Shown: positions 2,659 to 64,000 of the stretch, one piece after another
Numbering within the stretch: position 1 is the stretch's first letter
Layout of the letters: each line of letters opens with the position of its first letter
Virus record (IMG/VR): IMGVR_UViG_3300042923_000619
Coordinates: 1 to 64,000 of that record
DNA length: 64,000 nt
Direction: 5' to 3' (one strand)
Source of the DNA: a virus
Made by a program: the position numbers and the translations under genes
The notes under the pieces: generated by a model
Databases searched by the model: none
What the model saw: only the letters and a program-made list of their open reading frames with translations
Told to the model about the DNA's origin: nothing

Positions 2659-4623
2659 ATGTCAGAGCAAATAATAGTATTATCAGATAAACAAAAGGCT
2701 AGAGACAAAATCAATGTATGGCATGGTTCTTCAAGTAATTGGATAAACATGGTCAAAGAACTTGTAGGAAATAGTTTAGACATATTTAATAACAATAAAT
2801 TAAATCATATTAAAATAATAATACATAACAAAAATAAGATTGAATTTATAGATGATGCAACAGGAATTCCATTAGAAGGAACTGCTTCAAATGGACAACC
2901 TAATTATGAAGCAATATTTGAAATTCCGTTTGCAGGTAGTAAATATTCAGCTACAGATACAGTTGGTTGTAATGGAATATTTCTTTTTACTTTATCAGCA
3001 ACTTGTGAAGATATTGAATATTTTATATCTAGACCAAATAATAATATTTATAATATAGCCTATCATAAAGGAGATAGAGTCAAAGAATTAAATATAATAG
3101 GAAAATCAGATGATACATATTCAAGGTTAATTTTTAGTTTAGATGAAGAAGTATGGGATAAACCTAATTTCACTTATAATGAAATTTGCAATATTGTTCA
3201 AGGGCAATCAAGTTTAGCCAATGTTGAAATTATTGTAGAAGATAAAGAAAATAATAAAGTATCAAAATTTTATTATGAAAATGGTATATTAGATTATTTC
3301 AATGAATTAACAAACAAAAAAACTATGATTACAGATAATATTAGAATAACTAAAGACATTGACTCAATTGTTGAAAAGAATAATGAAACTGACCATATGA
3401 CTATAGATTTACTTTTTAATTATTCTAATGACTCTGATGACGATATTCAAAAGGATTATTTAAATACAGCAGATTTAATTCAGCATGGAACTATTCAAGA
3501 TGGTATAATTCTAGGATTAAAGAATTCAATACATAAATGGTTAAAAAGTAATAATAAATACAATAAGAATGAAAAGAATATTTCTCTTGAAGATGTTTTT
3601 ACAGGTTTAAATTATATTTGTAATGTAAAGAGTTTTTATGCCGAATATGTTTCACAAGTAAAACAACAGACTTTAACTCCACATTATAAAACTGCATTAC
3701 AAAAATTCATTGAAGAATATATGGAAGTATTTTTTATAGAAAATCCAATACAAACGGAATTAATTTGCAATCAAGTTTTAATTAATTCAAGAGCTAGATT
3801 AAGTGCAGATAAAACAAGACAAAATATTAAAAAGAAATTAGAAGATGCAAATAAAGGTGGAAAAGTAAAAATCGATGGTTTAACTGATTGTGATATGAAA
3901 AAAAGTAAATTGGATGAAAGATTTTTACTTGTAGTAGAAGGATTATCTCCAAAAGAAACAGTAGTAGAAGCTTATGATAATAATACTATGGGGGCATTAG
4001 GTTTAAGAGGAAGATTTATTTCATGTTTAAAGAAAAGTGTTGAAGAAGTATTAAATAATGTTCCAGCTTATACATTGATTCAAGCGTTGGGTTGTGGTAT
4101 AGAAATTCCATATGAAGAAAGAAAGATGTTTAAAGATATAAAAACATTTGATAAAAGTAATTTAAGATATGGAAATATTGGAATACTTACAGATGCTGAT
4201 TGTTGGGGGTCAGGTATAAGGCTAGCATTATTAACTTTTATATATAAATACTTACCTACATTATTAAAAGAAAACAGAGTTTATATAATAATTTCACCAC
4301 GTTATGAAATTAAAATGAAAAATGGTGAAATGGTATACGTATATAATGACAGAGAAAAAGAACAATTTATGAAAACAATAAATGAAGATGATATTTATAA
4401 TATAGGAATTGTGAAAGGAATCGGAGAAATAAACAAAGATGATTTTTGGGACAAAGTTTTATGTCCAGAAGCAAGAGATAAAACATTTATAAGAGTTAAT
4501 TATGACAATATTGATGAAGTTATAAATAAATGTTTTGAAGATTATATGGGTGAGAATACTCAACCTAGAAAAGAATTTGTTAGTAAATTTATAACTAATG
4601 TAAACTTAGAAGAAATTAATTAG
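2659..4623 (+). CDS. gyrB: Type IIA topoisomerase subunit B (GyrB/ParE-like)
   Basis: GHKL motifs ELVGNSLD, DDATGIP and AGSKY; TOPRIM motifs VEGLS, ALGLRG and ILTDAD; C-terminal KGIGE. Confidence 0.85.
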   Translation: MSEQIIVLSDKQKARDKINVWHGSSSNWINMVKELVGNSLDIFNNNKLNHIKIIIHNKNKIEFIDDATGIPLEGTASNGQPNYEAIFEIPFAGSKYSATDTVGCNGIFLFTLSATCEDIEYFISRPNNNIYNIAYHKGDRVKELNIIGKSDDTYSRLIFSLDEEVWDKPNFTYNEICNIVQGQSSLANVEIIVEDKENNKVSKFYYENGILDYFNELTNKKTMITDNIRITKDIDSIVEKNNETDHMTIDLLFNYSNDSDDDIQKDYLNTADLIQHGTIQDGIILGLKNSIHKWLKSNNKYNKNEKNISLEDVFTGLNYICNVKSFYAEYVSQVKQQTLTPHYKTALQKFIEEYMEVFFIENPIQTELICNQVLINSRARLSADKTRQNIKKKLEDANKGGKVKIDGLTDCDMKKSKLDERFLLVVEGLSPKETVVEAYDNNTMGALGLRGRFISCLKKSVEEVLNNVPAYTLIQALGCGIEIPYEERKMFKDIKTFDKSNLRYGNIGILTDADCWGSGIRLALLTFIYKYLPTLLKENRVYIIISPRYEIKMKNGEMVYVYNDREKEQFMKTINEDDIYNIGIVKGIGEINKDDFWDKVLCPEARDKTFIRVNYDNIDEVINKCFEDYMGENTQPRKEFVSKFITNVNLEEIN

Positions 4624-4630
4624 GAGGCTT

Positions 4631-6691
4631 ATGATGGAAAAAGGAATAATAGAAGTATTACAAACAGAAATGTTAGATTTCACAGCACCAGTATTAATAA
4701 ATAATCTTCCTTCAATAGATGGGTTATTAGTGTCTCAAAGACAAGTAATTTGGGGCATGAAAAAAGCAGGAATGACTAGTGATAAACAATTTTATAAAAT
4801 GTTAAAGGCTAGTGGTAGAATATTTGATTATTACGTATTAGGTGATATGCCTCTTTGTGGAGTTATGAAAAACATGGGTAATAATTATATTTTACATAAA
4901 TATTTAATGCCTAAAGGTAGTTTTGGTAATAAGAATTTTAAGAAAAGCAAAGGTTCAGCACCTAGATATATAGAATGTAAATTAGACCCGTATTCAGAAT
5001 ATATGTTAGAAGGAATAAATAAAAATGCAGTAACTATGAAATGGAATTATGATGCTACTGAAAAAGAACCTATATTATTACCTTCTAAAATACCAAACAT
5101 ATTAGTAAATTTAAGAATGAGTATAGCTGTTTCTGAAGCAAATAAAATGCCTTCTCATCATTTAGAAGATGTTTGCAATAGTATTGTCTCATATATAAAA
5201 ACAAAAGATATTGATAAGTCTATAGAATTGATTAAAACTCCAGATTTACCAAGTGGAGGTTCTATTATTTATAATAAAAATGATTTTGAGAAGATTTATA
5301 AAGAGGGAAGTGGTTCTTTTACTATTATAGGTAAATATAAATATGATAAAGAAAACAATATAATAACCATATATGAGATTCCATACACAACATATTTAGA
5401 GAATATTGAGGAAGAACTGGAGTCTAAACTAGATAAATTTTCAAAAGAACTTGTAGATTATCATAATGGTTCTGATAAAGATGGTTTAAAATTTGAACTA
5501 TATTTAAAAAAAGGAGCAAATGTTAATACAGTAATTCAAAAGTTAAGAAAACTCACATCATTTGAAAGCAAATTTGCTTGTAATTTTACTATATTAGATT
5601 TAGATGGAAAAACTCCTAAGTGTATGTCTTTAGAAGATATATATACAAGATGGCTAATTCATAGAAAAACTTGTATTAAAAATGAATTAAATTTTGATAT
5701 GGATAGATATAATAAAAAATTACACCAGTTAAAAGGTTTAGAAAAAATATTAAATGGCTTAGATAAAGCGATTTCAATAATACAAAATTCTCAAACTGAT
5801 GAAGATGCTAAAAACAATATAATAACAACTTTTTCATTAGATAGAGAACAAGCAGAATTTTTCTTAACGATAAAACTTATAAACATAAACAAAGGATTTA
5901 TAAGTAATAAAATAAAAGAAATAAGTAATTTAGAATTAGAGATAAGTAATATAATAACTATGCTTTCTTCTGATGATAACATAAATAATATTATAATAGA
6001 ACAACTTGAAGAAGTTAAAAAGAAATTTAGTAAACCTAGATTAACAAATATTATTTATGATGACAAAACTGAAAAAATGTCAGACGATATGTTTATAGAA
6101 GACTTTACAACTACTTTAATCATGAGTGAAGAAGGGTACTTTAAAAAGACTCGTAAATATAGTGAAACTCAAAAGCTAAAAGATAATGATTCAATAAAAA
6201 CAATAGTTCAATGTAGCAATAAAGACAAGGTTATATTTATATCTAATTTAGGAAATGCTTATTTCTTAAACTTATGGGAGCAGAATGAAAGGACTCCATC
6301 TGCTTTAGGTGAATATCTGCCAAATCTATTACCACTAGAAAAAAATGAAACTATAATAGGTATGTTAACTACTAATCAATATAAAGGTCATGTAATCTAT
6401 GTATTTAATAACTCAAAAATAGCTAAGATACCTTTATCTAGCTTTAAGACAAAGACAAATAGAACAAGATTATCGAACTCCATCGCTCAAGATAATGGTG
6501 AAATATTATTAATAACTCAAATAACAGATGATGTTGATATTGAATTAATTGATTGCTTTGATAAAACTAAAGTAGTAAACACTAAGGATATTAATTCTAA
6601 AGCCAGTAAGGATACCGTGGGAGTTACAAGTTGGAATTGTAAGAAGCAAGGATTTAAAGTTATTTCAGCAAAAGTTCTAACTGATAAGTAA
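4631..6691 (+). CDS. gyrA: Type IIA topoisomerase subunit A (GyrA/ParC-like)
   Basis: NLPSIDGL, catalytic PRYIECKL, EPILLPSKIPNILVN, PDLPSGG and EIPY motifs; short beta-pinwheel-like C-terminus; adjacent to the B subunit. Confidence 0.85.
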   Translation: MMEKGIIEVLQTEMLDFTAPVLINNLPSIDGLLVSQRQVIWGMKKAGMTSDKQFYKMLKASGRIFDYYVLGDMPLCGVMKNMGNNYILHKYLMPKGSFGNKNFKKSKGSAPRYIECKLDPYSEYMLEGINKNAVTMKWNYDATEKEPILLPSKIPNILVNLRMSIAVSEANKMPSHHLEDVCNSIVSYIKTKDIDKSIELIKTPDLPSGGSIIYNKNDFEKIYKEGSGSFTIIGKYKYDKENNIITIYEIPYTTYLENIEEELESKLDKFSKELVDYHNGSDKDGLKFELYLKKGANVNTVIQKLRKLTSFESKFACNFTILDLDGKTPKCMSLEDIYTRWLIHRKTCIKNELNFDMDRYNKKLHQLKGLEKILNGLDKAISIIQNSQTDEDAKNNIITTFSLDREQAEFFLTIKLININKGFISNKIKEISNLELEISNIITMLSSDDNINNIIIEQLEEVKKKFSKPRLTNIIYDDKTEKMSDDMFIEDFTTTLIMSEEGYFKKTRKYSETQKLKDNDSIKTIVQCSNKDKVIFISNLGNAYFLNLWEQNERTPSALGEYLPNLLPLEKNETIIGMLTTNQYKGHVIYVFNNSKIAKIPLSSFKTKTNRTRLSNSIAQDNGEILLITQITDDVDIELIDCFDKTKVVNTKDINSKASKDTVGVTSWNCKKQGFKVISAKVLTDK

Positions 6692-14973: not shown

Positions 14974-15068
14974 AAGACAACTAAACCGACACAGTTATTC
15001 ATAAGTGCAGTTGTTAAGATGAATAAATAAATTAAAATATAAAATATTGAAGGAGAGATTTATGACTG

Positions 15069-16370
15069 ATGGATTATAATAAAGATGATTTAATAAAGGC
15101 ACGACAAAATCTCTATAAACTTAAAAATCAAGAAATACACTATAGATATAAACAGAATAAAGATGGTAGTTGGGATAAAGATATAAAAAATAATAAATTA
15201 GAAGGAGAGAAAGAAATGATAACAATAAAAGGAATTAATAAAAACAATGAATTGGAGTATGAATTAATAGGGGGTAAATTACAATATAGTAATCAATTAA
15301 TAATTACAGATACTACAAATAACGAAATGATATATGATAAAACAATTACTACTTTTGAAACAACTCATAAAATACCAAATGATGTATTAGAAAATGGGAA
15401 GACTTATAAATTACTATTATTAGCTTTAGATGAGGATGATAATTTTATAGGAGAAGCTGAATATTATTATATCCCAACTAGTTTGAAACCTGTTATGAAA
15501 TTACGAACTGAAAAAGATAATGGTGGTATTAAAATTATTACATATGTAAAGCAAATATTAGAAAGAGTAGAAAATGGAGAAGATATTACATATGAAGATG
15601 GTACTTGGAAAGATGTAAATAAATCAACAATTGGAATGAATATAAATGGATTAGAAGAAAAATTAGTTATAAAAGATTGGACACCGACTATACCTCCAAA
15701 AGAAAATGATATTATGACTTATCAAAATATTCGATATATATTTAAAAATGGAGAATATATACCTATAGATATTATTACTGATAATGATTTATATTTTGCT
15801 AAAGTTGAATCTAATGCAATCATTCCATCTAAAAGAGAAGAAGATGCTGGTTATGACATTTATACTTGTGAAACTGAAACTATATTTATTCCACCATGTA
15901 GCACAAGAATGATTGATACTGGGATTGCAATAGCCTGTAGCAAAAACTATTTTCCTAAATTTTTTGATAAAGGTGGAATGGGAAGTAAAGGAATTATAGT
16001 TGGAGCAGGAGTTGGAGATAGTGGTTATAGAGATAAGTATTTTATTCCTTTGGTAAATACAAATGAAGATAAATATGTAGTCATTACAAATCAATCACAA
16101 GAAGAAATTGATAAATCTAATTATTTTGATTTGAATGACAAGATGTTTAAAAAATCAGTTTGTATTGATAATTATTTAGAAGAAAAATTAAAAAGACCTT
16201 TAGATGTTATATTTAAAGAAGATTGTATTATTAAACCATTAAATAAAGCTATTACACAGTTTGTAATGTTACCAGTTCCTAAAATGAATGTAAAAGAAAT
16301 TACATATGAAGAACTTAAAAATATCAAATCCGAACGTGGATTAGGTAAATTAGGAAGTTCAAATAAATAA
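15069..16370 (+). CDS. dut: Trimeric dUTPase with an N-terminal extension of about 240 aa
   Basis: C-terminal motifs AGYDIY, GVGDSGYR, AITQFVM and RGLGKLGSS. The extension contains a beta-sandwich segment similar to part of tail protein 51251..53905. Confidence 0.85.
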   Translation: MDYNKDDLIKARQNLYKLKNQEIHYRYKQNKDGSWDKDIKNNKLEGEKEMITIKGINKNNELEYELIGGKLQYSNQLIITDTTNNEMIYDKTITTFETTHKIPNDVLENGKTYKLLLLALDEDDNFIGEAEYYYIPTSLKPVMKLRTEKDNGGIKIITYVKQILERVENGEDITYEDGTWKDVNKSTIGMNINGLEEKLVIKDWTPTIPPKENDIMTYQNIRYIFKNGEYIPIDIITDNDLYFAKVESNAIIPSKREEDAGYDIYTCETETIFIPPCSTRMIDTGIAIACSKNYFPKFFDKGGMGSKGIIVGAGVGDSGYRDKYFIPLVNTNEDKYVVITNQSQEEIDKSNYFDLNDKMFKKSVCIDNYLEEKLKRPLDVIFKEDCIIKPLNKAITQFVMLPVPKMNVKEITYEELKNIKSERGLGKLGSSNK

Positions 16371-51250: not shown

Positions 51251-53905
51251 CTAGCCTATTCTTACATCACTATTGAACCATTGTTTTATATTACTTAAAT
51301 TCCAACTTGGATTACCATCTGTAAATATACTTTCAGCACTATCAAATTCTTTATTTATAGTAATAACGTCTGATAATAAATAAACTGAATTTGTGTCTTT
51401 TTTATAGATTGTAAATTTAATTATCTTATTTTTATACTTGACACAATTTGCTTTTACCTTATTTCCAATATTTAAGTTACTAATATCTTGTATTGAAAAT
51501 AAAGATAGAATCTTAAAAGTCATATTATAACAATCATCTTTTGAATCTGACAATGTAGATACTTTAGTATTCTTAGGTATTCTTACACCAAATCTTATAC
51601 CTGTAGTATTACTATTGGGATAAATAGTTGATGAACTTTCATCTGTATTAAATACTTTTAATTTATTGTTATCAACAGTATCAATTGTTCTAGTGAAATA
51701 TGGAATATCTGCACCTAATTTTATTTCATTACTATATCCTAATACCATTTCTCCAAGTCTAGCTGTTCCTAATATCGCATCCATATTTGAAAGATTAAGT
51801 TCGTCCAATGTTGGAATATATACTTTTACGCTATCTCCATCAATTACATTGTCCATTAATATATTTTTAAAGTCTTCATGTATATAACTCAAAAATCCAT
51901 TTTCACTTGCATAACTTGGCATTTCATCATTATCATAAGATTTTTTGTACCATGTTGATCTACCATTTACAACTCTTTTTACATCAAAGTTCATTAATCC
52001 CAATGCTGTATCATTTTGAATATAAAAATATAACACATCTGTTGTCAATATATCTCCTACAACAAATGAATGTAATTCATATAATTTAATTCCACTTACA
52101 AATTTAGATAGTGAAAACATATTATTATATCTAGATAATTGTATATAATTTTTGTCATCTAATTCAAATTTAATTAGCATTACATCATGTAATTCAAGGT
52201 CTCTTGCCCATATTTTAGCAGTCCAATCTCCTTCTAGACGGAACGCCCCGTCCTTATCCCATATTACTACTGTGTTATGTAAATCAGCCCAAGTTCCATC
52301 TATATAATTTATATCATTCCCACTATAAATACGTCCTCTAATTTGTCTGACATAGCTTGTTATTTTTACACTTCCTGTAGTTGGACTATTTTCAAGTTTC
52401 ATAACTGCTGGTAATTTAGTTTGCAAAAAAACACAATAAAAATCTTGTGATATACTTGTTTCCATACCACTTGCTGTTTTTACTTTTAACTCTATAGTAT
52501 AATTTGTTTTATTTTCTAAATTAGAAAATTGATATTGTAATAATTTATCTAATAAAACACCGCTTGAAGCGATTAATGCACCATCTTCATATAAATTATA
52601 AACATAACTATATAATTCATCTGCTTCATTTTGACTATATGTAGCCATCATTACTGGATTAGGACTTTCTATTTTACCATCAATAATTGTTGTTACGTTT
52701 AGACTTGGTGGAGTCAAGCACTTTACAAGAACAGTATCGCTCCATGTCGAATACTGACCATTTGAATTATATGTTCTAATTTTTATTTGATATGTATGAC
52801 CATTACTTAATGTATTAAGTGGTATTGTATTATTAAATTCAAAACTTTCTATTTTTTTGTTATAAATTATAATTGATGAATTTATATTGTCTACAACATT
52901 TATTTCATTTGCATATACTAATTCACCACCAACCACATTAAATTTAATAATATTATCAACTAATGCGTTTATTGGTGCTAAAGAAAGTGAATTTGTTGGG
53001 GTTATAATTATAGGTCTTGTTAAATTAATTCCTGTTCCACTTGTATTATCCACTATTTTATTAAAAGTCCAAGTTCTTAATACAACATTATCACATGTAT
53101 CTGTAGTTCTTATTACAACTGTATGATTTCCAGCAGATAAATTAGTCCAAAGCGTTCCCAACAAACTATATATGAATTTAGTTTTACTAGGTTGATTTTC
53201 TAAAGTCCGTGTAACTGTTCCATCAAGTATTTCTTCAACTTTAAACAAATCATTTTCTGGGTCAGTAATTGTATATTCTTGTGTTATGCTTGAAGTAAAA
53301 TTTCCTAAAAATCTATCACTATCTGATATAACTGGAGGTTGATTATATTTCTCTAACATAATTCTCCAATTTGAGTTATCAGTTACTAATATGTTATTAG
53401 TTGTATTTATTGCATTACCACCTCTAATAATTACATTACTGCCACTAATATCTTTAGTTAAAGAAGGTGATTTCCACCAATGAAGTAAAGTGTTTGTATC
53501 AGAAGTAGAGATAGTTGTATCATTATAATTTCCAGTCAAATCATTTGAATTTGGAGTTAATAATGTATTTAAGTTAACTTGATTTAATACAAAATCGTCC
53601 CATTCTTTACTAGTAATTAATCTTATCTTATATTGATATTGATTTATAGTTACCATAGAATTTCCACCAACAAAGCCTTGAATATTCAATTGATTATAAC
53701 TTATTCCACTTAATAAATTTTTAGTAGATAATAAATACTCATGTGCGCCACTATTAATAACTAACCATTCAATATCTGTTCCACTAGATTTTAATTCTAA
53801 AACTGCATTGTTAATATAAGTAATTGGTGCAGATGAGAAATTAACTTGTATTCCATTTTGAAACAAACTACCTTGTACTATTTTTTGTACTGACAACATC
53901 CTCAC
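51251..53905 (-). CDS. Large tail/baseplate protein with Ig/FN3-like domains
   Basis: YSLLGTLWTNLSAGNHTVVIRTTD, LSNGHTYQIKIRTY, LENKTNYTIELKVKT; located in the tail operon. Confidence 0.7.
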   Translation of the reverse strand: MRMLSVQKIVQGSLFQNGIQVNFSSAPITYINNAVLELKSSGTDIEWLVINSGAHEYLLSTKNLLSGISYNQLNIQGFVGGNSMVTINQYQYKIRLITSKEWDDFVLNQVNLNTLLTPNSNDLTGNYNDTTISTSDTNTLLHWWKSPSLTKDISGSNVIIRGGNAINTTNNILVTDNSNWRIMLEKYNQPPVISDSDRFLGNFTSSITQEYTITDPENDLFKVEEILDGTVTRTLENQPSKTKFIYSLLGTLWTNLSAGNHTVVIRTTDTCDNVVLRTWTFNKIVDNTSGTGINLTRPIIITPTNSLSLAPINALVDNIIKFNVVGGELVYANEINVVDNINSSIIIYNKKIESFEFNNTIPLNTLSNGHTYQIKIRTYNSNGQYSTWSDTVLVKCLTPPSLNVTTIIDGKIESPNPVMMATYSQNEADELYSYVYNLYEDGALIASSGVLLDKLLQYQFSNLENKTNYTIELKVKTASGMETSISQDFYCVFLQTKLPAVMKLENSPTTGSVKITSYVRQIRGRIYSGNDINYIDGTWADLHNTVVIWDKDGAFRLEGDWTAKIWARDLELHDVMLIKFELDDKNYIQLSRYNNMFSLSKFVSGIKLYELHSFVVGDILTTDVLYFYIQNDTALGLMNFDVKRVVNGRSTWYKKSYDNDEMPSYASENGFLSYIHEDFKNILMDNVIDGDSVKVYIPTLDELNLSNMDAILGTARLGEMVLGYSNEIKLGADIPYFTRTIDTVDNNKLKVFNTDESSSTIYPNSNTTGIRFGVRIPKNTKVSTLSDSKDDCYNMTFKILSLFSIQDISNLNIGNKVKANCVKYKNKIIKFTIYKKDTNSVYLLSDVITINKEFDSAESIFTDGNPSWNLSNIKQWFNSDVRIG

Positions 53906-57283: not shown

Positions 57284-60200
57284 TTATTTTGGGTTTTTTA
57301 ATAAAGCAAGTTGTTTAGCTTGAGTTATAACATCAGTAAATACATCTTTAACTCCACTATCTACATTAGGGAAAGTTAAATCACCAAATTGATATGTAAC
57401 ACTACTTGCAGTTTTATTATTGTTTACTGTTGATACTGCACCACTACCACTCAAAGAATTTAATACACTAGAATTCATTGAATATCCACTTGCATTAGCA
57501 TAGTTTTTATATTGGTCATATACAGATTGGTTATAAAGTGGATTATTAGAATTATCATACAATCCTTTCTTTCCTTCTGTCCATGTAGAGATTTCTTGTT
57601 TATAAGCATTGAATTTAGTTTGTATGTCTGAAATATCTACATCTCCAATATTAACACCCATTTTATCCATCATGTTTCTAAAGTCTTGGAATGCTTCCTC
57701 ACACTGTACAAGTGCTTCCATTACATATCCCATACTACTTTGAGTTATATTTACTATATTTCCAAATCTAAAATCCCAAACCATTTGAACTAATTCTAAG
57801 AATTTATCTTCAAATTTAGTAAACTTATCTGCAAATTGAACTCTACTGTTATACTCATCAGTTTGTGATTTATTTTGTTTATCCAATTCATTTTTATAGT
57901 GAGCATCTTGTTCAGATTCTAATTTATTATTTATATCTACTAGATTTTTATATTGCTCTGACAATCCATCAGAATCAGTTTTTGTAATTTTATCTACTTG
58001 AGTTTTCCTGTCTTTAATATCATCATCTGTTATGTCTACATTCTTTTTAGATACTGCTAATTTTTCATAACTATCACTTAAATCACTTATTGATTTATTA
58101 GCAATTTTTGCACCTGAATCAACACTGTTTAAATAATTTGTTATTCCTTTTACATCTAGATTAGCTTTATCATTTAACTTATCTTTATTTTTATTAAGGT
58201 ATCCTGATACATCTCCACTATTAATTGCTTCATCTTGTTCAGTAGAAGTAAAATTAGCCTGTAATGTTTTTAAATTATTTAATTTTTGAGTTGACTGATT
58301 AACAAAAATAGAAATTGCATTAGAAATATCACTTATATTGTCGTTATATTCTTTCTTTAAAGAACCTAACATAGTCTTTGCCATTCTTTCAGTGTCAGAA
58401 TAATAAGATTCTATTCTTTTCTTATCCCTATCCTGTGTTTCCTTTAAATCATCGGATATTTTCTTTAGATATTCTTTTTTTACATTGTATGCTTTATCTT
58501 CAGCAGTTTTACTATCTTCTATTTTTTGTTTCTCTTTATCATACTCTTGGTCTGATTTTTCTTTATTGTAAGCCTTTTTAGCGTCATCAACTTCTTTTTT
58601 CTTTTTATCAACAGTTTCTTGGTCTATTGCTCCAACATATGAAAACGTATGGTCTGCATTTTCTTTTGCATATTTTACAGTTTTTTGATTTTCAAGATTA
58701 TTAAGTTCAATTTCTTTCTGTTTTAAATCATTTTTCTTTTCTTGCAGTTCATTAGATTTTTCCTCTTCATTATGTTGTTTTTCTAAAGCATTTAATTCAG
58801 CTTCATAATTATCCATTTTAGATTGATGAAGTTGTTCTTGTTGATTTTCTAAATCTTCTAAATCTTTAGTTTGTTTCTTTTGTTGAGATTCTAATGTTGC
58901 TTCTTCAATCTCTTTTTGATTATCAAACATCTTTTTAAGTTCATCAGTGTTAAACTTATCAATTTGTTCTTGCAAATTAGCTACTTCAAGTTTTTCATCA
59001 CGTAATTCTTTCGATGCCTTGAGTGTTGCTGATTCTAATTCTTTTTGTGCTTCAGCAGTAGTTACAGTTGTAGATTTTAATTTATTTAATTGAGTTTCAG
59101 CTTCACTAACAATTTGTTTTTGTTCATTCATTTTTTTAGATGTTAAATCCACTTTTTGAACAAAATTGCTATCATCAGTATCTCCAAGCAATTTTAAATT
59201 ATAATCTATTTCTCCAATATCATTTTCTATTTTATCTTTAGCTTCGTTATATGCGTCCGTGATATCTTTTATCATCTGTTTTTCTGAGTCTTCTAATTCT
59301 TTGTTCTCTTTTTCCTTCTTTTTCTTAGAATCTCCACCAGATGGCATATAATCTCCACTAGCTGAACTTGGGATATTCCCCCCATTTCCACCACTATACG
59401 GAACGCTACCAATACCAGCATATAATGAATCTGCTTGTTGTTTTGCTTTTTCATATGCATGAAGTTGGTCTTGTTGTTGCTTTAATTGTTCAAATTCAGG
59501 AGAATTTTCTTCTAAACTTTGTGCTTTTCCAATACTCATGGTTGAGTAATCTTGAGCACCAGCCATTCTAGCTGAAATAACTGCTTGAATAGCTTGTATT
59601 TCTGCTTTATACATTCCAATTCTATTAGTTATTTCAGCATATGTAACTTGTGAATTACCAACTTGCCATTCAGAATTAACTTTAGCATCAGTAATACGAA
59701 TTGCACTAAGATTATCTACTGTAAGTCCTTCTGATTGTAATCTTTGTATATTAGCTTCAATTAAAGGAGAATTAGAAATATAAGCTTTCCCATTTTCGTC
59801 AATAGATACATTTAATCCACCAACTTTTTCTTGTAATTGTTCAACTACATTCCCTAATTGAGTTTTCTGTTCAGCAGATAAACTTTCTTGAGCTGATAAA
59901 TTTTGATATTCTGAATATAAACTTTGAACAGAAGAAATATAATTATTAAATTCTGTTTGTGCTTGTTCCATATTCTGTCTATTTTCAAGTTGTGCTTTGG
60001 TTTGTTCTTTTATACTATTAATAACTTTAGTATTGTCTATTTTATCTTGTGCCTCAGTAAATTCATTAACTTTTCCAGTAGTTTCATCAATAGTATATCC
60101 AGCATCTTTTAAAACTTTTTCTTGTTCTTCTATTTTTTTATTTACTCCAGCAATTAAATCTGCTTGATTAGCACCACCAGCAGTTGGATTAAATGATGTT

Positions 60201-61015
60201 GTAGGCATATCTTGATATTTCTTCTTAATTTCAATTAATCTTTGTAATTGCTCTTGTGCCTTTTTCATCTTATCAACATCTTCTTGTGCCTTTGATGTAT
60301 CACCATTCTTTAAAGCTTCATTAACACCTTTTAACGCTTCTTTTAATGTATTAGATTGTTGTGTAAGTTCTGCTTGATGTTCCTTATATGATGTAAAAGC
60401 AGTTATTGCAATACCAACTGCAACAGCAATTCCACTTATAATAAGACCTAAAGGAGTAGTCATAAATGCTACAGAACTAGCCACTGCTTCTTTTATTCCA
60501 GTACTTAATAATACCCATGCACCTTTTAAACCAGTTAATCCTTCTGTTTGTGCTATTGCTCCCATTTGTGCTAATTGCATAGCTTTTGTTGCATTAGTTA
60601 CTTCATTTATTGTAGTACTAACTGTAGACATTCCTGTTAATACCGCTATAAATTTACTTAAACCTGTTACCGCTTCACCAGCAATTAATGTTTTATTTAA
60701 AGTTGATAATTTAGACATGACTAATACCAAGCCACCAATTGTTGCAGTAAAAGCTATAGTTTGTCCATCTACATTTGTTAAAGCCGTTACTAATTGTGTA
60801 AACTCAGATACTAACCATTTTAATTGTTCTGAACTTGTTATTTTTTCATATAATTGTTCAAATGCTCTTTTAAGGTCTTGAATACGTGCATCTAGAGATT
60901 GGTTATACGCTTCATCCATCATTTTTTTAGCTGAACCAGCAGATTGTGCAACTTCTTTTTGATGTTGATTTAACGTATCCATATTCTCCATTAATGCCAT
61001 TAATGTTTCTCTTTG
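57284..61015 (-). CDS. Tape measure protein, exon 3
   Basis: Frame QRETLMALMEN... begins at 61015, just after the intron-terminal G; long Ala/Gly-rich hydrophobic and coiled-coil segments. Confidence 0.85.
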   Translation of the reverse strand, partial: QRETLMALMENMDTLNQHQKEVAQSAGSAKKMMDEAYNQSLDARIQDLKRAFEQLYEKITSSEQLKWLVSEFTQLVTALTNVDGQTIAFTATIGGLVLVMSKLSTLNKTLIAGEAVTGLSKFIAVLTGMSTVSTTINEVTNATKAMQLAQMGAIAQTEGLTGLKGAWVLLSTGIKEAVASSVAFMTTPLGLIISGIAVAVGIAITAFTSYKEHQAELTQQSNTLKEALKGVNEALKNGDTSKAQEDVDKMKKAQEQLQRLIEIKKKYQDMPTTSFNPTAGGANQADLIAGVNKKIEEQEKVLKDAGYTIDETTGKVNEFTEAQDKIDNTKVINSIKEQTKAQLENRQNMEQAQTEFNNYISSVQSLYSEYQNLSAQESLSAEQKTQLGNVVEQLQEKVGGLNVSIDENGKAYISNSPLIEANIQRLQSEGLTVDNLSAIRITDAKVNSEWQVGNSQVTYAEITNRIGMYKAEIQAIQAVISARMAGAQDYSTMSIGKAQSLEENSPEFEQLKQQQDQLHAYEKAKQQADSLYAGIGSVPYSGGNGGNIPSSASGDYMPSGGDSKKKKEKENKELEDSEKQMIKDITDAYNEAKDKIENDIGEIDYNLKLLGDTDDSNFVQKVDLTSKKMNEQKQIVSEAETQLNKLKSTTVTTAEAQKELESATLKASKELRDEKLEVANLQEQIDKFNTDELKKMFDNQKEIEEATLESQQKKQTKDLEDLENQQEQLHQSKMDNYEAELNALEKQHNEEEKSNELQEKKNDLKQKEIELNNLENQKTVKYAKENADHTFSYVGAIDQETVDKKKKEVDDAKKAYNKEKSDQEYDKEKQKIEDSKTAEDKAYNVKKEYLKKISDDLKETQDRDKKRIESYYSDTERMAKTMLGSLKKEYNDNISDISNAISIFVNQSTQKLNNLKTLQANFTSTEQDEAINSGDVSGYLNKNKDKLNDKANLDVKGITNYLNSVDSGAKIANKSISDLSDSYEKLAVSKKNVDITDDDIKDRKTQVDKITKTDSDGLSEQYKNLVDINNKLESEQDAHYKNELDKQNKSQTDEYNSRVQFADKFTKFEDKFLELVQMVWDFRFGNIVNITQSSMGYVMEALVQCEEAFQDFRNMMDKMGVNIGDVDISDIQTKFNAYKQEISTWTEGKKGLYDNSNNPLYNQSVYDQYKNYANASGYSMNSSVLNSLSGSGAVSTVNNNKTASSVTYQFGDLTFPNVDSGVKDVFTDVITQAKQLALLKNPK

Positions 61016-62632
61016 CTTTTATATTTATCTAGAATCGCTAAATCTAGACTTGTGTATATATTTTATCATTTAATATATTTATATAATTATTGTTTTTAAA
61101 TTCCCAATATGGAATATTGTTATCTATACAATATGTATTTTTGATATCATCATGTTTCTTTGTGTAAGTATATGATTCTTCTCCACCAAAATACTCAATA
61201 GTTTCAAAATGTTGTCTTCCGTCACATTCAATTAAATATTTTAATTTATTCTCATTGTTTAATATTGCAAAATCAAATGGAAGTGGCAATATATCTTTAC
61301 ACTTATCAATTTTATATTGTGAAATATATCTAATATTATCATTCTCTAAATATTGTTTTACCAATTTCTCTAATAAAGATTCTGCCTTGGTACAACATTT
61401 ACATCTTGTTTGAAAAGATGTTCTAAAATGTTTAAAAGTAACTTCAAAAGGTTGTCCACATTCCTCACATGAAAACAATAAAGGTGTGTCACAATTAACA
61501 TATTCTATTGATAATAATTTATTTTTATAATTGTTTAGTTTTAAATATAATATTATATTATAAATGGTGTGTGGATTAAACTTGCTAAATTTATCAATAT
61601 TACAGTCCTCTTTTTTATAAAGTAGAAAATCTGATAAAGAAATACAATATCTAAATCCAATATCATCTTGAATATTTATCTTAGATTTAGAATTTTTAAA
61701 CTCAGAAGTATTCATGATTTTAAAATTGTATCCTTTAAGTATTTCATTTGCTTTTTCAATATTAATTTTATTTCTTTTATCTCCCCCAGAACATTGTTTA
61801 CACTTTGTTCTTTTCTTATCTTTTAATTCTGCAAATGAAACAGAATACTCTTTCCCACATTTTTCGCAAGTAAACATGAGTTTTCCAACATTATTTATAT
61901 ATTTATCTGATAGTAGTTTATTTTTACAATCATTTAATACCAACCATAATTTAATATTTTCTATAGTATGAGGATTATATTTGCTAAACTTATCTAATTG
62001 TTTATTATATTGAATATACTCATTAAATGATATCTCATATTTATATCCTTCATCGTCATGAATAGAAAATTTAGTCTTACTATTTACATAATCGTCCTTT
62101 ATCATATATAATCCTTTTTCTTTTAATTTATTTTTGACTTGTTGTAAAGTATATTTTACTGGCATATTTCACCTTCTTGTCCTATTTTAATTATATACAC
62201 AACTCATACTTTCATATGAGAATAGACTATTTCTTCACCTTCATCTATTATATTTTTTTATAATAATGTTAAGGGCGTACCTTTTCCATTTAAGGGATTT
62301 TCACCCACTCTAAGCGATTGAGCCGTACTCCTATTGTTCGATTTTCACGAACCTTCTCAGGGATAGTCGTTGAAGATTCCCCATATTATAAATTAACTTA
62401 GGGGCTTACCTGCATGAACAACCATTTTATTATATAATTTGTTTTATATAATTTGTTTTATATAATTGAATACTTAGGATTTAACCTTATATCCATCCTT
62501 ACGTTTTTTCTACTTTCGTCCCTTCATATACTACTTTCGTATATATTGTGGTGTAAGGCTTTAGGTATTACCTGCAATTAAATACGTGTCCTATGCACAT
62601 TTCTGTACATACGAGGCTTTTTCTAAGAAAAA
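61016..62632 (-). mobile_element. Group I intron 2 in the tape measure gene, carrying an endonuclease ORF
   Basis: TAATTGCAGGTAATACC (P region), AACGACTA (R, 62364-62371), GAAATAGTCT (S, 62224-62233), 3' end hairpin plus TAAATATAAAAG. The 5' boundary is uncertain by a few nt. Confidence 0.85.
61044..62165 (-). CDS. Intron-encoded zinc-ribbon/EDxHD homing endonuclease
   Basis: CEKCG and CEECG repeats; LPFDFAI...IECDGRQHF; lies after the S element in the P9 region. Confidence 0.8.
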   Translation of the reverse strand: MPVKYTLQQVKNKLKEKGLYMIKDDYVNSKTKFSIHDDEGYKYEISFNEYIQYNKQLDKFSKYNPHTIENIKLWLVLNDCKNKLLSDKYINNVGKLMFTCEKCGKEYSVSFAELKDKKRTKCKQCSGGDKRNKINIEKANEILKGYNFKIMNTSEFKNSKSKINIQDDIGFRYCISLSDFLLYKKEDCNIDKFSKFNPHTIYNIILYLKLNNYKNKLLSIEYVNCDTPLLFSCEECGQPFEVTFKHFRTSFQTRCKCCTKAESLLEKLVKQYLENDNIRYISQYKIDKCKDILPLPFDFAILNNENKLKYLIECDGRQHFETIEYFGGEESYTYTKKHDDIKNTYCIDNNIPYWEFKNNNYINILNDKIYTQV

Positions 62633-62780
62633 TCTTGTTCCAGCCAAAGCTTGTATTCCTGCTAAGTAATCAACTTGGCTGAGTTGACCACTTTTAAATT
62701 TTTGCATAAATTCTTGCAATACTGTATCAAATTCTTTAAATTGACCTTTATTATTTCTGATTGCGATACCAATTCTATTC
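62633..62780 (-). CDS. Tape measure protein, exon 2 (148 nt)
   Basis: G plus NRIGIAIRNNKGQFKEFDTVLQEFMQKFKSGQLSQVDYLAGIQALAGTR; its length restores the frame between exons 1 and 3. Confidence 0.85.
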
Positions 62781-63065
62781 CATTTATATTCATATAGGCT
62801 CGTTAATTCCTATACCGTTCTCTTATGAACTGCTTATAGTTTCCTATAAGATTAGACTATATCACTATCCTAAATTAATAGGAGACTCACCATTTCCATT
62901 CACTTGAATGTACTTCCCGAAGGAATAGTCGTTAGGCTTTTATATTCTATATAATAGAATAATTTAGCACGGTAGGTTAGCATATTCATTTATGAACTTA
63001 GCCTTCCCCGTATTAAGCGAGTTATTCGAAATGGATTACTCCATTAAGCCACAAGTTTGTCGTTT
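62781..63065 (-). mobile_element. Group I intron 1 (285 nt, no ORF) in the tape measure gene
   Basis: P1 pairing of exon GCCAU with IGS GUGGC (U.G at the splice site); TAATACGGGGAAGGC, AACCGTGCTAA, AACGACTA (62926-62933), GATATAGTCT (62854-62863); terminal G. Confidence 0.9.
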
Positions 63066-64000
63066 ATGGCAAATTCTGTATCGTTAATTGTTTTTCCATC
63101 TTCATCAATATTACCTAGTTTTATATTACTATACCTTGCATAGATAGTTTTAAAACTTTCGCCTATTGTTGAAGCTGATTTTCGCGTTTTCTCAGAAACA
63201 GTTGTAATATATGTGATTAGGTTACTTAGTGGAGTTCCAGCCTCCTGTGCACTAAATGCTGTACGTTGTATTGCTGTTGCTATCTCAGCAAAGCTCGTAG
63301 CAGAAACATTGTCCATCTTACTCATCATATCTACAACATTCTGCATTCCTTCACCAGTCATATTAAAGGCATTTTTAATAGCAATTAATTGTTCAGTAAC
63401 TTGTGCAGTTGTTTGACCAGAAAGTTTAGAACCCATAATAGAAGCAGACATTAACGCTTCTCCTTCTTTTCCATCAAAACCTGCTCTAGTTACTTCTTCC
63501 ATACCCTTCATCATTTCTGCATTTGTTGTATGTAATTGTTCTCCTAATTGCTTATAATTATTAACTATATCAACTATTTCACCTTTGGATTTTCCAGTAA
63601 TCATCTGCATATTAGTCATTGACTTATCCATTTGAATAGTATAATTAACAGCATCTTTTAATTGACTTGTTATTTCTTGAACTACTTGTTGAACGCCATA
63701 AAAAATTCCAACCTTACTTAAAAAATTACTTAATCCACTAAAAAATCCACCATTATTAGTTTCTTTTAAAGAATTAACTAGTTGTTTGGTTTCATTAGTA
63801 GTTTGTTCCATTGATGATTTAACAGTATTTAAACTGTTTCTAATATTATTAAAATTAACATTATCAGTTTCTTTTAATTTACTTAACAAACTGTTTAAAT
63901 CTTTAGTTGTAGACTCCACAAATCCATTAGGTAATTTATTTCCAAACTTTTGTTGCAATTTTTCAACCTGTGAAATTGTATTATTTATATCTTTAGTTAA
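63066..64000 (-). CDS. Tape measure protein, exon 1 (5' part beyond the window)
   Basis: TP901-like TMP core: DKSMTNMQMITG, SATSFAEIATAI, RKSASTIGESFKTIYARY. Confidence 0.88.

Follow-up and report, generated by a model that had tools for sequence, protein, structure and literature searches.

Why should a phage dUTPase begin with a domain that resembles a piece of a tail protein, and is the resulting polypeptide the product of one real gene? The question is raised by an ORF of 433 aa (15069..16370, + strand) in a 196,135 bp record from a clostridial-type phage, whose first 64,000 nt are the stretch hereafter called the window. The original prediction held that this ORF joins a dUTPase to a domain homologous to part of the phage's own tail protein, that the domain was acquired by intragenomic capture, and that the product might dock on the virion or moonlight.

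The similarity to the tail protein was examined by BLASTP. The N-terminal part of the fusion protein (433-aa numbering is used throughout) aligned with the tail ORF at 51251..53905 (− strand) in two collinear blocks. The first joins residues 60-115 to tail residues 318-374 (37% identity, E 6×10−9) and corresponds to the segment near 15243-15420 that had already been pointed out. The second, which is stronger and new, joins residues 134-233 to tail residues 493-590 (E 1×10−12). Its significant tail homology is restricted to residues 134-183, which are 46% identical to residues 493-542 of the phage's own tail protein (E 2×10−12) and 48% identical to the orthologue P0004 (E 9×10−13). With a profile HMM of 34 tail-family sequences, two domains were recognised in the N-terminal module (E 4.7×10−25 and 5.2×10−13), and a tblastn-type search of the whole 196,135-bp record found only these two tail places besides the dUTPase gene. 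The similarity between fusion and tail is far beyond chance. The in-frame fusion of a dUTPase to a tail-protein-type domain is a true one, and two independent relatives share it (see below).

The tail ORF encodes a tail-tip/baseplate-region protein of 884 aa, and its gene sits between the tape-measure genes and the tail-fibre gene. Its N-terminal part (residues 44-292, within 51251-53905, − strand) matches phrog_36643 and a Hoc-like Ig module (phrog_10993). Then come, all on the − strand, a first FN3 domain (FN3#1, 52715-52993), a second one (FN3#2, 52433-52711), a ConA-like domain (51956-52429) and the C-terminal part. The N-terminal third also resembles the 'Hoc-like head decoration protein' of Faecalibacterium phage Mushu (29%, E 5×10−13). 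AlphaFold2 modelled residues 305-660, using 34 sequences, as three beta domains with a pLDDT of 87.5; within FN3#1 the values per block were mostly 92-97, and 81 for the first block. Foldseek matched the FN3 pair to 3pdd (E 2×10−7), and also to lambda gpJ and the T1 tail tip, and with VIA the pair gave Z scores of 10-11 to FN3 pairs (rmsd 4.4-5.0 over 173-174 residues). Modelled alone, the third domain reached a pLDDT of 82.5. Its fold matches were middling (VIA Z 6-8.2) and all were ConA-like jelly rolls, namely LamG/LNS, GH16, PL7, legume lectins, CBM66 and a phage tailspike domain.

Weak HMM matches of this third domain onto dUTPase cores (E 0.008-1) brought up the idea that it could be a diverged dUTPase. 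At the sequence level this is ruled out by an hhalign probability of 0.1 between the tail family and dUTPases; the fold searches, of middling strength as evidence, list no dUTPase.

Orthologues of the tail ORF directly follow the tape-measure gene in contigs L008 and L009. In other large phages and prophages of Firmicutes, these orthologues and a related family of ~350 aa come right behind the tape-measure gene and an ORF of ~90 aa. This ~350-aa family, of FN3-FN3-ConA-like architecture, has no Pfam or PHROG name (L005 8001-9062, L007 659-1921) and occurs in SPbeta-like (YomN-bearing) and other large Firmicute prophages. In its members, the FN3 homologous to that of the fusion is the extreme N-terminal domain. 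In the window, the tape-measure gene (57284-63958, − strand) appears split by an HNH homing-endonuclease ORF of 373 aa (61044-62165, −), which separates an N-terminal piece with a PhageMin_Tail match (63044-63958, −) from a second piece of 1238 aa (57284-61000, −). In L007, an adjoining tail-module gene (3308-5737) carries an intein (Hint, Intein_splicing, LAGLIDADG_3).

With the tail family at hand, the N-terminal module could be divided into three segments. Residues 50-136 (15216..15476, +) are a homologue of the entire tail-family FN3#1 (HMM positions 302-379). We read this segment as an FN3-type domain on the basis of its homology to the modelled tail FN3#1; Pfam fn3 did not match the fusion protein itself. 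Residues 137-183 (15477..15617, +) share homology with the opening ~50 residues of the tail protein's ConA-like third domain. In the HMM alignment, position 379 gives way to position 482 within one residue, and the second domain hit starts where the first ends; tail FN3#2 is thus missing exactly. Compared with the complete FN3-FN3-ConA-like architecture, the fusion contains only FN3#1 and the beginning of the third domain. This beginning covers the first five short strands of a domain of ~155 residues and 13 strands, ~100 residues being absent. It is a fragment and no complete domain, probably an evolutionary or recombination scar. The third segment, residues 184-236 (15618..15776, +), begins with NKSTIGM and is common to other dUTPases of the clade: in BLASTP it matched the leaders of P0136 (E 3×10−8) and P0119 (E 5.5×10−7), against E 9 for the tail ORF, and NKSTI-type N-termini were also present in P0162, P0048, P0047 and P0002. 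These residues are not of tail origin and would be the native leader of the dUTPase. No signal peptide was seen by eye in the fusion protein, and neither an RBS nor an in-frame ATG with an RBS was found between the FN3 and the enzyme.

We then considered where translation starts. The original prediction had noted an internal RBS and ATG at 15216, and both are present: the start region (15199..15218, +) reads GAAGGAGAGAAAGAA, then the ATG at 15216, with the RBS AAGGAGAG at 15202-15209. This start is conserved in relatives. The N-termini of the two FN3-dUTPase relatives P0002 and P0003 correspond to M50, encoded by this ATG, and the DNA homology between the window and contig L001 begins at the RBS preceding 15216, the 147 bases upstream being unrelated. 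Moreover, the window, L010 and L011 have exactly the same string at the start, GAAGGAGAGAAAGAAATG, from which L001 departs at two bases. In L010 (377-418) and L011 (1117-1158) it also precedes a dUTPase, and the flanks differ among the three loci. Given the starts of the relatives, the onset of homology with L001 and the identity of this string, the true start is most likely ATG 15216 and the main product a protein of 384 aa.

The 49 in-frame codons upstream (15069..15215, +) are probably outside this main product. As they are open in frame, with no stop codon ahead of 15216, and have an RBS of their own (15050-15057), a longer isoform starting at 15069 could be made. Reading through GAAGGAGAGAAAGAAATG without a stop is common to all three loci that share the string: the upstream ORF is the 49-aa segment in the window and an unrelated Zn-ribbon in L010 and L011. 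Such read-through could reflect dual isoforms or a recombination junction. A mini-ORF of 5 codons (15062-15079, MTDGL and stop) begins 6 nt past the upstream RBS and runs across ATG 15069 in another frame; its spacing to the RBS is better than that of ATG 15069. A promoter and terminator scan returned fewer promoter-like sites than in shuffled sequence, and no terminator.

The C-terminal part, residues 237-433 (15777..16370, +, stop codon included), is a dUTPase of the trimeric type. It matched PF00692 with 39 bits, compared to a curated cut-off of 22, phrog_135 with E 7×10−30, and solved dUTPases of the PDB with E 1×10−10; the solved phi11 and 80alpha chains matched the enzyme core with E about 1×10−8. 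Identities to the dUTPases of Brevibacillus phage Sundance, Thrax2 and similar large Bacillus siphophages are 30-38%. No other PF00692 match occurs in the 196-kb record. Motifs I (A260-G-Y-D263), III (GVGDSGYR, G314..D317..Y320-R321), IV (K393..Q397) and V (R423-G..G429-S430-S431) are conserved across the clade. In motif II (D300-K-G-G-M-G), Arg is replaced by Lys and the usual Ser by Gly; motif V shows a Leu where Phe is found in many dUTPases. Because of these deviations we grade dUTPase activity as likely rather than established. An ESM Atlas search with P0002 confirmed the dUTPase part and added nothing further.

Between motifs III and IV, the predicted insertion is real, and about 50 residues long (16086..16235, +). 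The interval from Y320 to Q397 counts 77 residues, compared to about 26 over the matching interval of E. coli Dut, and the alignments to solved dUTPases end ahead of the insertion. Among P0001, P0002 and P0003 it shows indels and low identity, and between the window and L001 (one pair) its dN/dS is 0.91, against 0.08-0.11 for the enzyme core. The phi11 Dut has its motif VI between motifs III and IV (PMC9927489). The insertion described here occupies the topological position of this staphylococcal phage motif, and it evolves fast.

Two relatives, both metagenomic, carry the same fusion: P0002 (307 aa, JGI contig L001) and P0003 (273 aa, Logan). In both, the FN3-dUTPase ORF is uninterrupted and lacks residues 137-233, i.e. 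the second block, which a short NK(L/S)(S/T)I linker replaces. The fusion is thus continuous in three independent assemblies (JGI, Logan and IMG/VR). L001 is moreover syntenic with the window, with an nrdG-type gene upstream and the same small membrane ORF downstream. Searches for close relatives in IMG/VR by peptide patterns and in GenBank phages by megablast gave none, and since only three FN3-dUTPase clusters were found in the databases searched, the combination is rare. A literature search returned no relevant report on a phage dUTPase with an FN3, a virion location or a fusion.

Comparing the window with L001, a single pair of sequences, the FN3 domain has a dN/dS of 0.136 at a dS of 0.61; it is under purifying selection, at a strength similar to that acting on the enzyme core. 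The three FN3 domains are 82-86% identical to one another, whereas the enzyme body of P0003 is only ~51% identical to the two other bodies. That body is 81-92% identical to bodies associated with other N-terminal modules (P0122, P0075, P0100, P0136, P0119). Because its dN/dS is low, because it is kept across divergent bodies, and because no start lies between it and the enzyme, the FN3 appears to behave as a selected, exchangeable part of the dUTPase protein.

The exchange of N-terminal parts extends well beyond these three proteins. Among 60 cluster representatives with at least about 56% identity in the enzyme domain, about 23 have an N-terminal extension of 57-284 residues, and about 37 have none. 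In total, 86 extended relatives were retrieved, spanning 38-100% identity in the enzyme domain, and they fell into 21 groups of N-terminal extensions unlinked by BLAST. Zn-ribbons, small SH3-like domains and a MKYITP-type domain of 125-134 residues are among the types found. Proteins P0055-P0058, from plasmids and phages of C. botulinum C/D and C. haemolyticum, have an enzyme part 68-72% identical to that of the window, preceded by an N-domain of their own (72-84 residues, family unnamed) with no internal start. Some extensions are in fact ORFs located upstream whose reading frame runs on across the conserved RBS (signature ..GEKEM); others, in which no internal start occurs, are true fusions. 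Close to its 5′ end, the dUTPase gene of both P0047 and P0053 contains an in-frame insertion of NUMOD4/HNH_3 homing-endonuclease domains, and P0053 also shows a duplication of part of the dUTPase N-terminus on either side of the HNH insert. HNH insertion may be a cause of the turnover of the 5′ end. From these comparisons, the 5′ end of dut is a swap site at which large clostridial-type phages exchange many unrelated small domains, and the fusion studied here is one case of this clade-wide swapping.

Where the module came from was addressed with a phylogeny of 42 FN3#1 domains, in which those of the three dUTPases formed a long-branched clade (support 100/99). The ML tree places this clade next to members of the small family, while the phage's own tail ORF sits in a separate, well-supported clade of the 884-aa type. 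Uniting the dUTPase FN3s with the 884-aa lineage was not rejected by the AU test (p 0.42), and the best matches of the lectin-like stump were all 884-aa-type proteins. With only 36% identity between the FN3 of the fusion and that of the own tail protein, and identities of 36-46% in all, any capture would be old. Capture within this genome is unsupported by the ML tree, which places the FN3 with a different tail subfamily, and is no more than a possible origin. The simplest history would be a single old capture of an FN3-FN3-lectin-start segment, followed by the loss of one FN3 repeat.

Several accounts of the locus can be weighed against these data. That the N-terminal part is a separate upstream gene, merged with the dUTPase by a lost stop codon or a sequencing error, is correct in its substance for codons 1-49, where relatives have unrelated sequence and behind which come the conserved RBS and ATG; several seemingly extended relatives likewise turn out to be upstream ORFs running through this same RBS. 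It fails for the FN3, which lies after the conserved start, is continuous with the enzyme in all three assemblies, and has no RBS or in-frame start between it and the enzyme. For the FN3 such an artefact is largely refuted, and we hold it very improbable as an account of the fusion. A virion-docked enzyme, as originally proposed, would have the tail-type FN3, with or without the stump, fix the trimeric enzyme on the tail or baseplate for carriage in the particle. FN3 and stump do belong to a tail-tip protein family, and in its ~350-aa members the FN3 holds the extreme N-terminal position, which often anchors tail appendages; phage Ig-like domains are reportedly described mainly on virion proteins (Fraser et al. 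2006, cited in PMC8718954). The gene, however, is outside the structural module. It is on the + strand, with nrdD/nrdG upstream and a SNF2 helicase gene downstream; the tail genes occupy the − strand at about 47 to 64 kb, a distance of about 35 kb. This location leaves docking without support. Furthermore, the FN3 diverges from its counterpart in the own tail protein and groups apart from it in the tree, at this very site the same enzyme body is joined in relatives to Zn-ribbon, SH3-like and other modules of non-virion type, and the stump is an incomplete lectin-like domain that the FN3-bearing relatives lack. We consider docking distinctly unlikely.

The FN3 and the stump could also be tolerated passengers: debris of illegitimate recombination at the 5′ end of dut, including an FN3 devoid of a role, which would persist for no other reason than the tolerance of trimeric dUTPases for N-terminal additions. 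That the stump is a mere piece of a domain is clear, and the HNH ORFs at the same 5′ region in P0047 and P0053 could bring about shuffling induced by breaks. The enzyme also works without an extension, since about 37 of the 60 close representatives have none. Yet a roleless FN3 would not be expected to show a dN/dS of 0.14 at a dS of 0.61, nor to stay 82-86% identical while the enzyme body was exchanged (~51%), and in the relatives the stump is gone while the FN3 is still intact. On balance this account seems to us rather unlikely. We give no greater weight, as a tentative reading, to the view that the N-terminus is a cassette site whose exchangeable binding domains (FN3, Zn-ribbon, SH3-like and others) form, together with the hypervariable loop, a diversifying interface in conflicts with satellites or host defences, with an FN3 that may dock the enzyme on the tail. 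The clade concerned is that of the dUTPases of large clostridial-type phages, including the plasmid-phages of C. botulinum C/D and C. haemolyticum.

We favour, at somewhat better than even confidence, the view that the locus is one real gene, encoding a working dUTPase with a kept FN3 adaptor and a scar-like stump, at a 5′ swap site common to the clade. Translation from ATG 15216 would give the 384-aa product, a trimeric-type enzyme and the sole dUTPase of the phage, expected to hydrolyse dUTP within a nucleotide-metabolism module beside nrdD/nrdG. Its N-terminal module, taken from the tail-tip family of FN3-FN3-lectin-like proteins, consists of one complete FN3 and a lectin-like stump of ~50 residues, FN3#2 having been removed precisely, and is joined to the enzyme's native NKSTI-type leader. 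We infer that the FN3 is a kept, working accessory domain: each trimer would display three copies of it, most likely as a protein-binding adaptor for a partner in the infected cell. The stump would be a recombination scar that the relatives have lost. The anatomy of the protein, its homologies, the selection and the shuffling come from the data themselves; catalysis, trimer formation, the adaptor role and its partner are inferred. The swapping of N-terminal cassettes and the fast insertion would fit an enzyme surface engaged as a contact in conflicts between phage and host, or phage and satellite.

How does this dUTPase compare with known ones? The dUTPases of large Bacillus and Brevibacillus siphophages and of clostridial plasmid-phages share the same enzyme domain, an insertion-bearing core of ~190 aa. 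The Bacillus phage enzymes differ from the fusion in having neither extension nor FN3, and those of C. botulinum and C. haemolyticum in having the 72-84-aa N-domain in place of an FN3. A structural-protein domain N-terminal to a trimeric dUTPase is also found in Mason-Pfizer monkey virus, where a betaretroviral nucleocapsid-dUTPase fusion is made by ribosomal frameshifting within gag-pro; the virus is unrelated, and the fused domain a different one. FN3 and Ig-like domains are carried by virions in SPP1 gp17.1*, lambda gpJ and T4 Hoc, and the source family described here is likewise a tail-tip family with tandem FN3. These phage FN3s, however, are on particle proteins, whereas the present one is on a predicted cytoplasmic enzyme encoded among replication genes. 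The staphylococcal phi11 and 80alpha Duts are also of the trimeric type, and between their motifs III and IV lies a variable insertion specific to phages (PMC9927489). Unlike the fusion, they have no N-terminal accessory domain. Staphylococcal Dut binds Stl and derepresses SaPIbov1; the phage studied here is not known to have an Stl-like partner or satellite, and the two insertions share a position rather than a demonstrated ancestry. The idea that the dUTPase may serve as a conflict interface draws on the parallel with this Dut-Stl system (PMC9927489, PMC6695447) and on the variability seen in the clade.

Phage Ig-like and FN3 domains are regarded as decorations of the particle. Here, purifying selection keeps one of them on a cytoplasmic housekeeping enzyme, and its exchange between enzyme lineages suggests that such domains are reused as general binding adaptors. 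Even if the FN3 had no partner, the locus would still illustrate cleanly how domains are shuffled at the 5′ end of a gene, a process that homing endonucleases may drive. The many unrelated N-terminal cassettes and the fast-evolving insertion may extend to another group of large Firmicute phages the picture, drawn from staphylococcal phages, of the dUTPase as a conflict interface.
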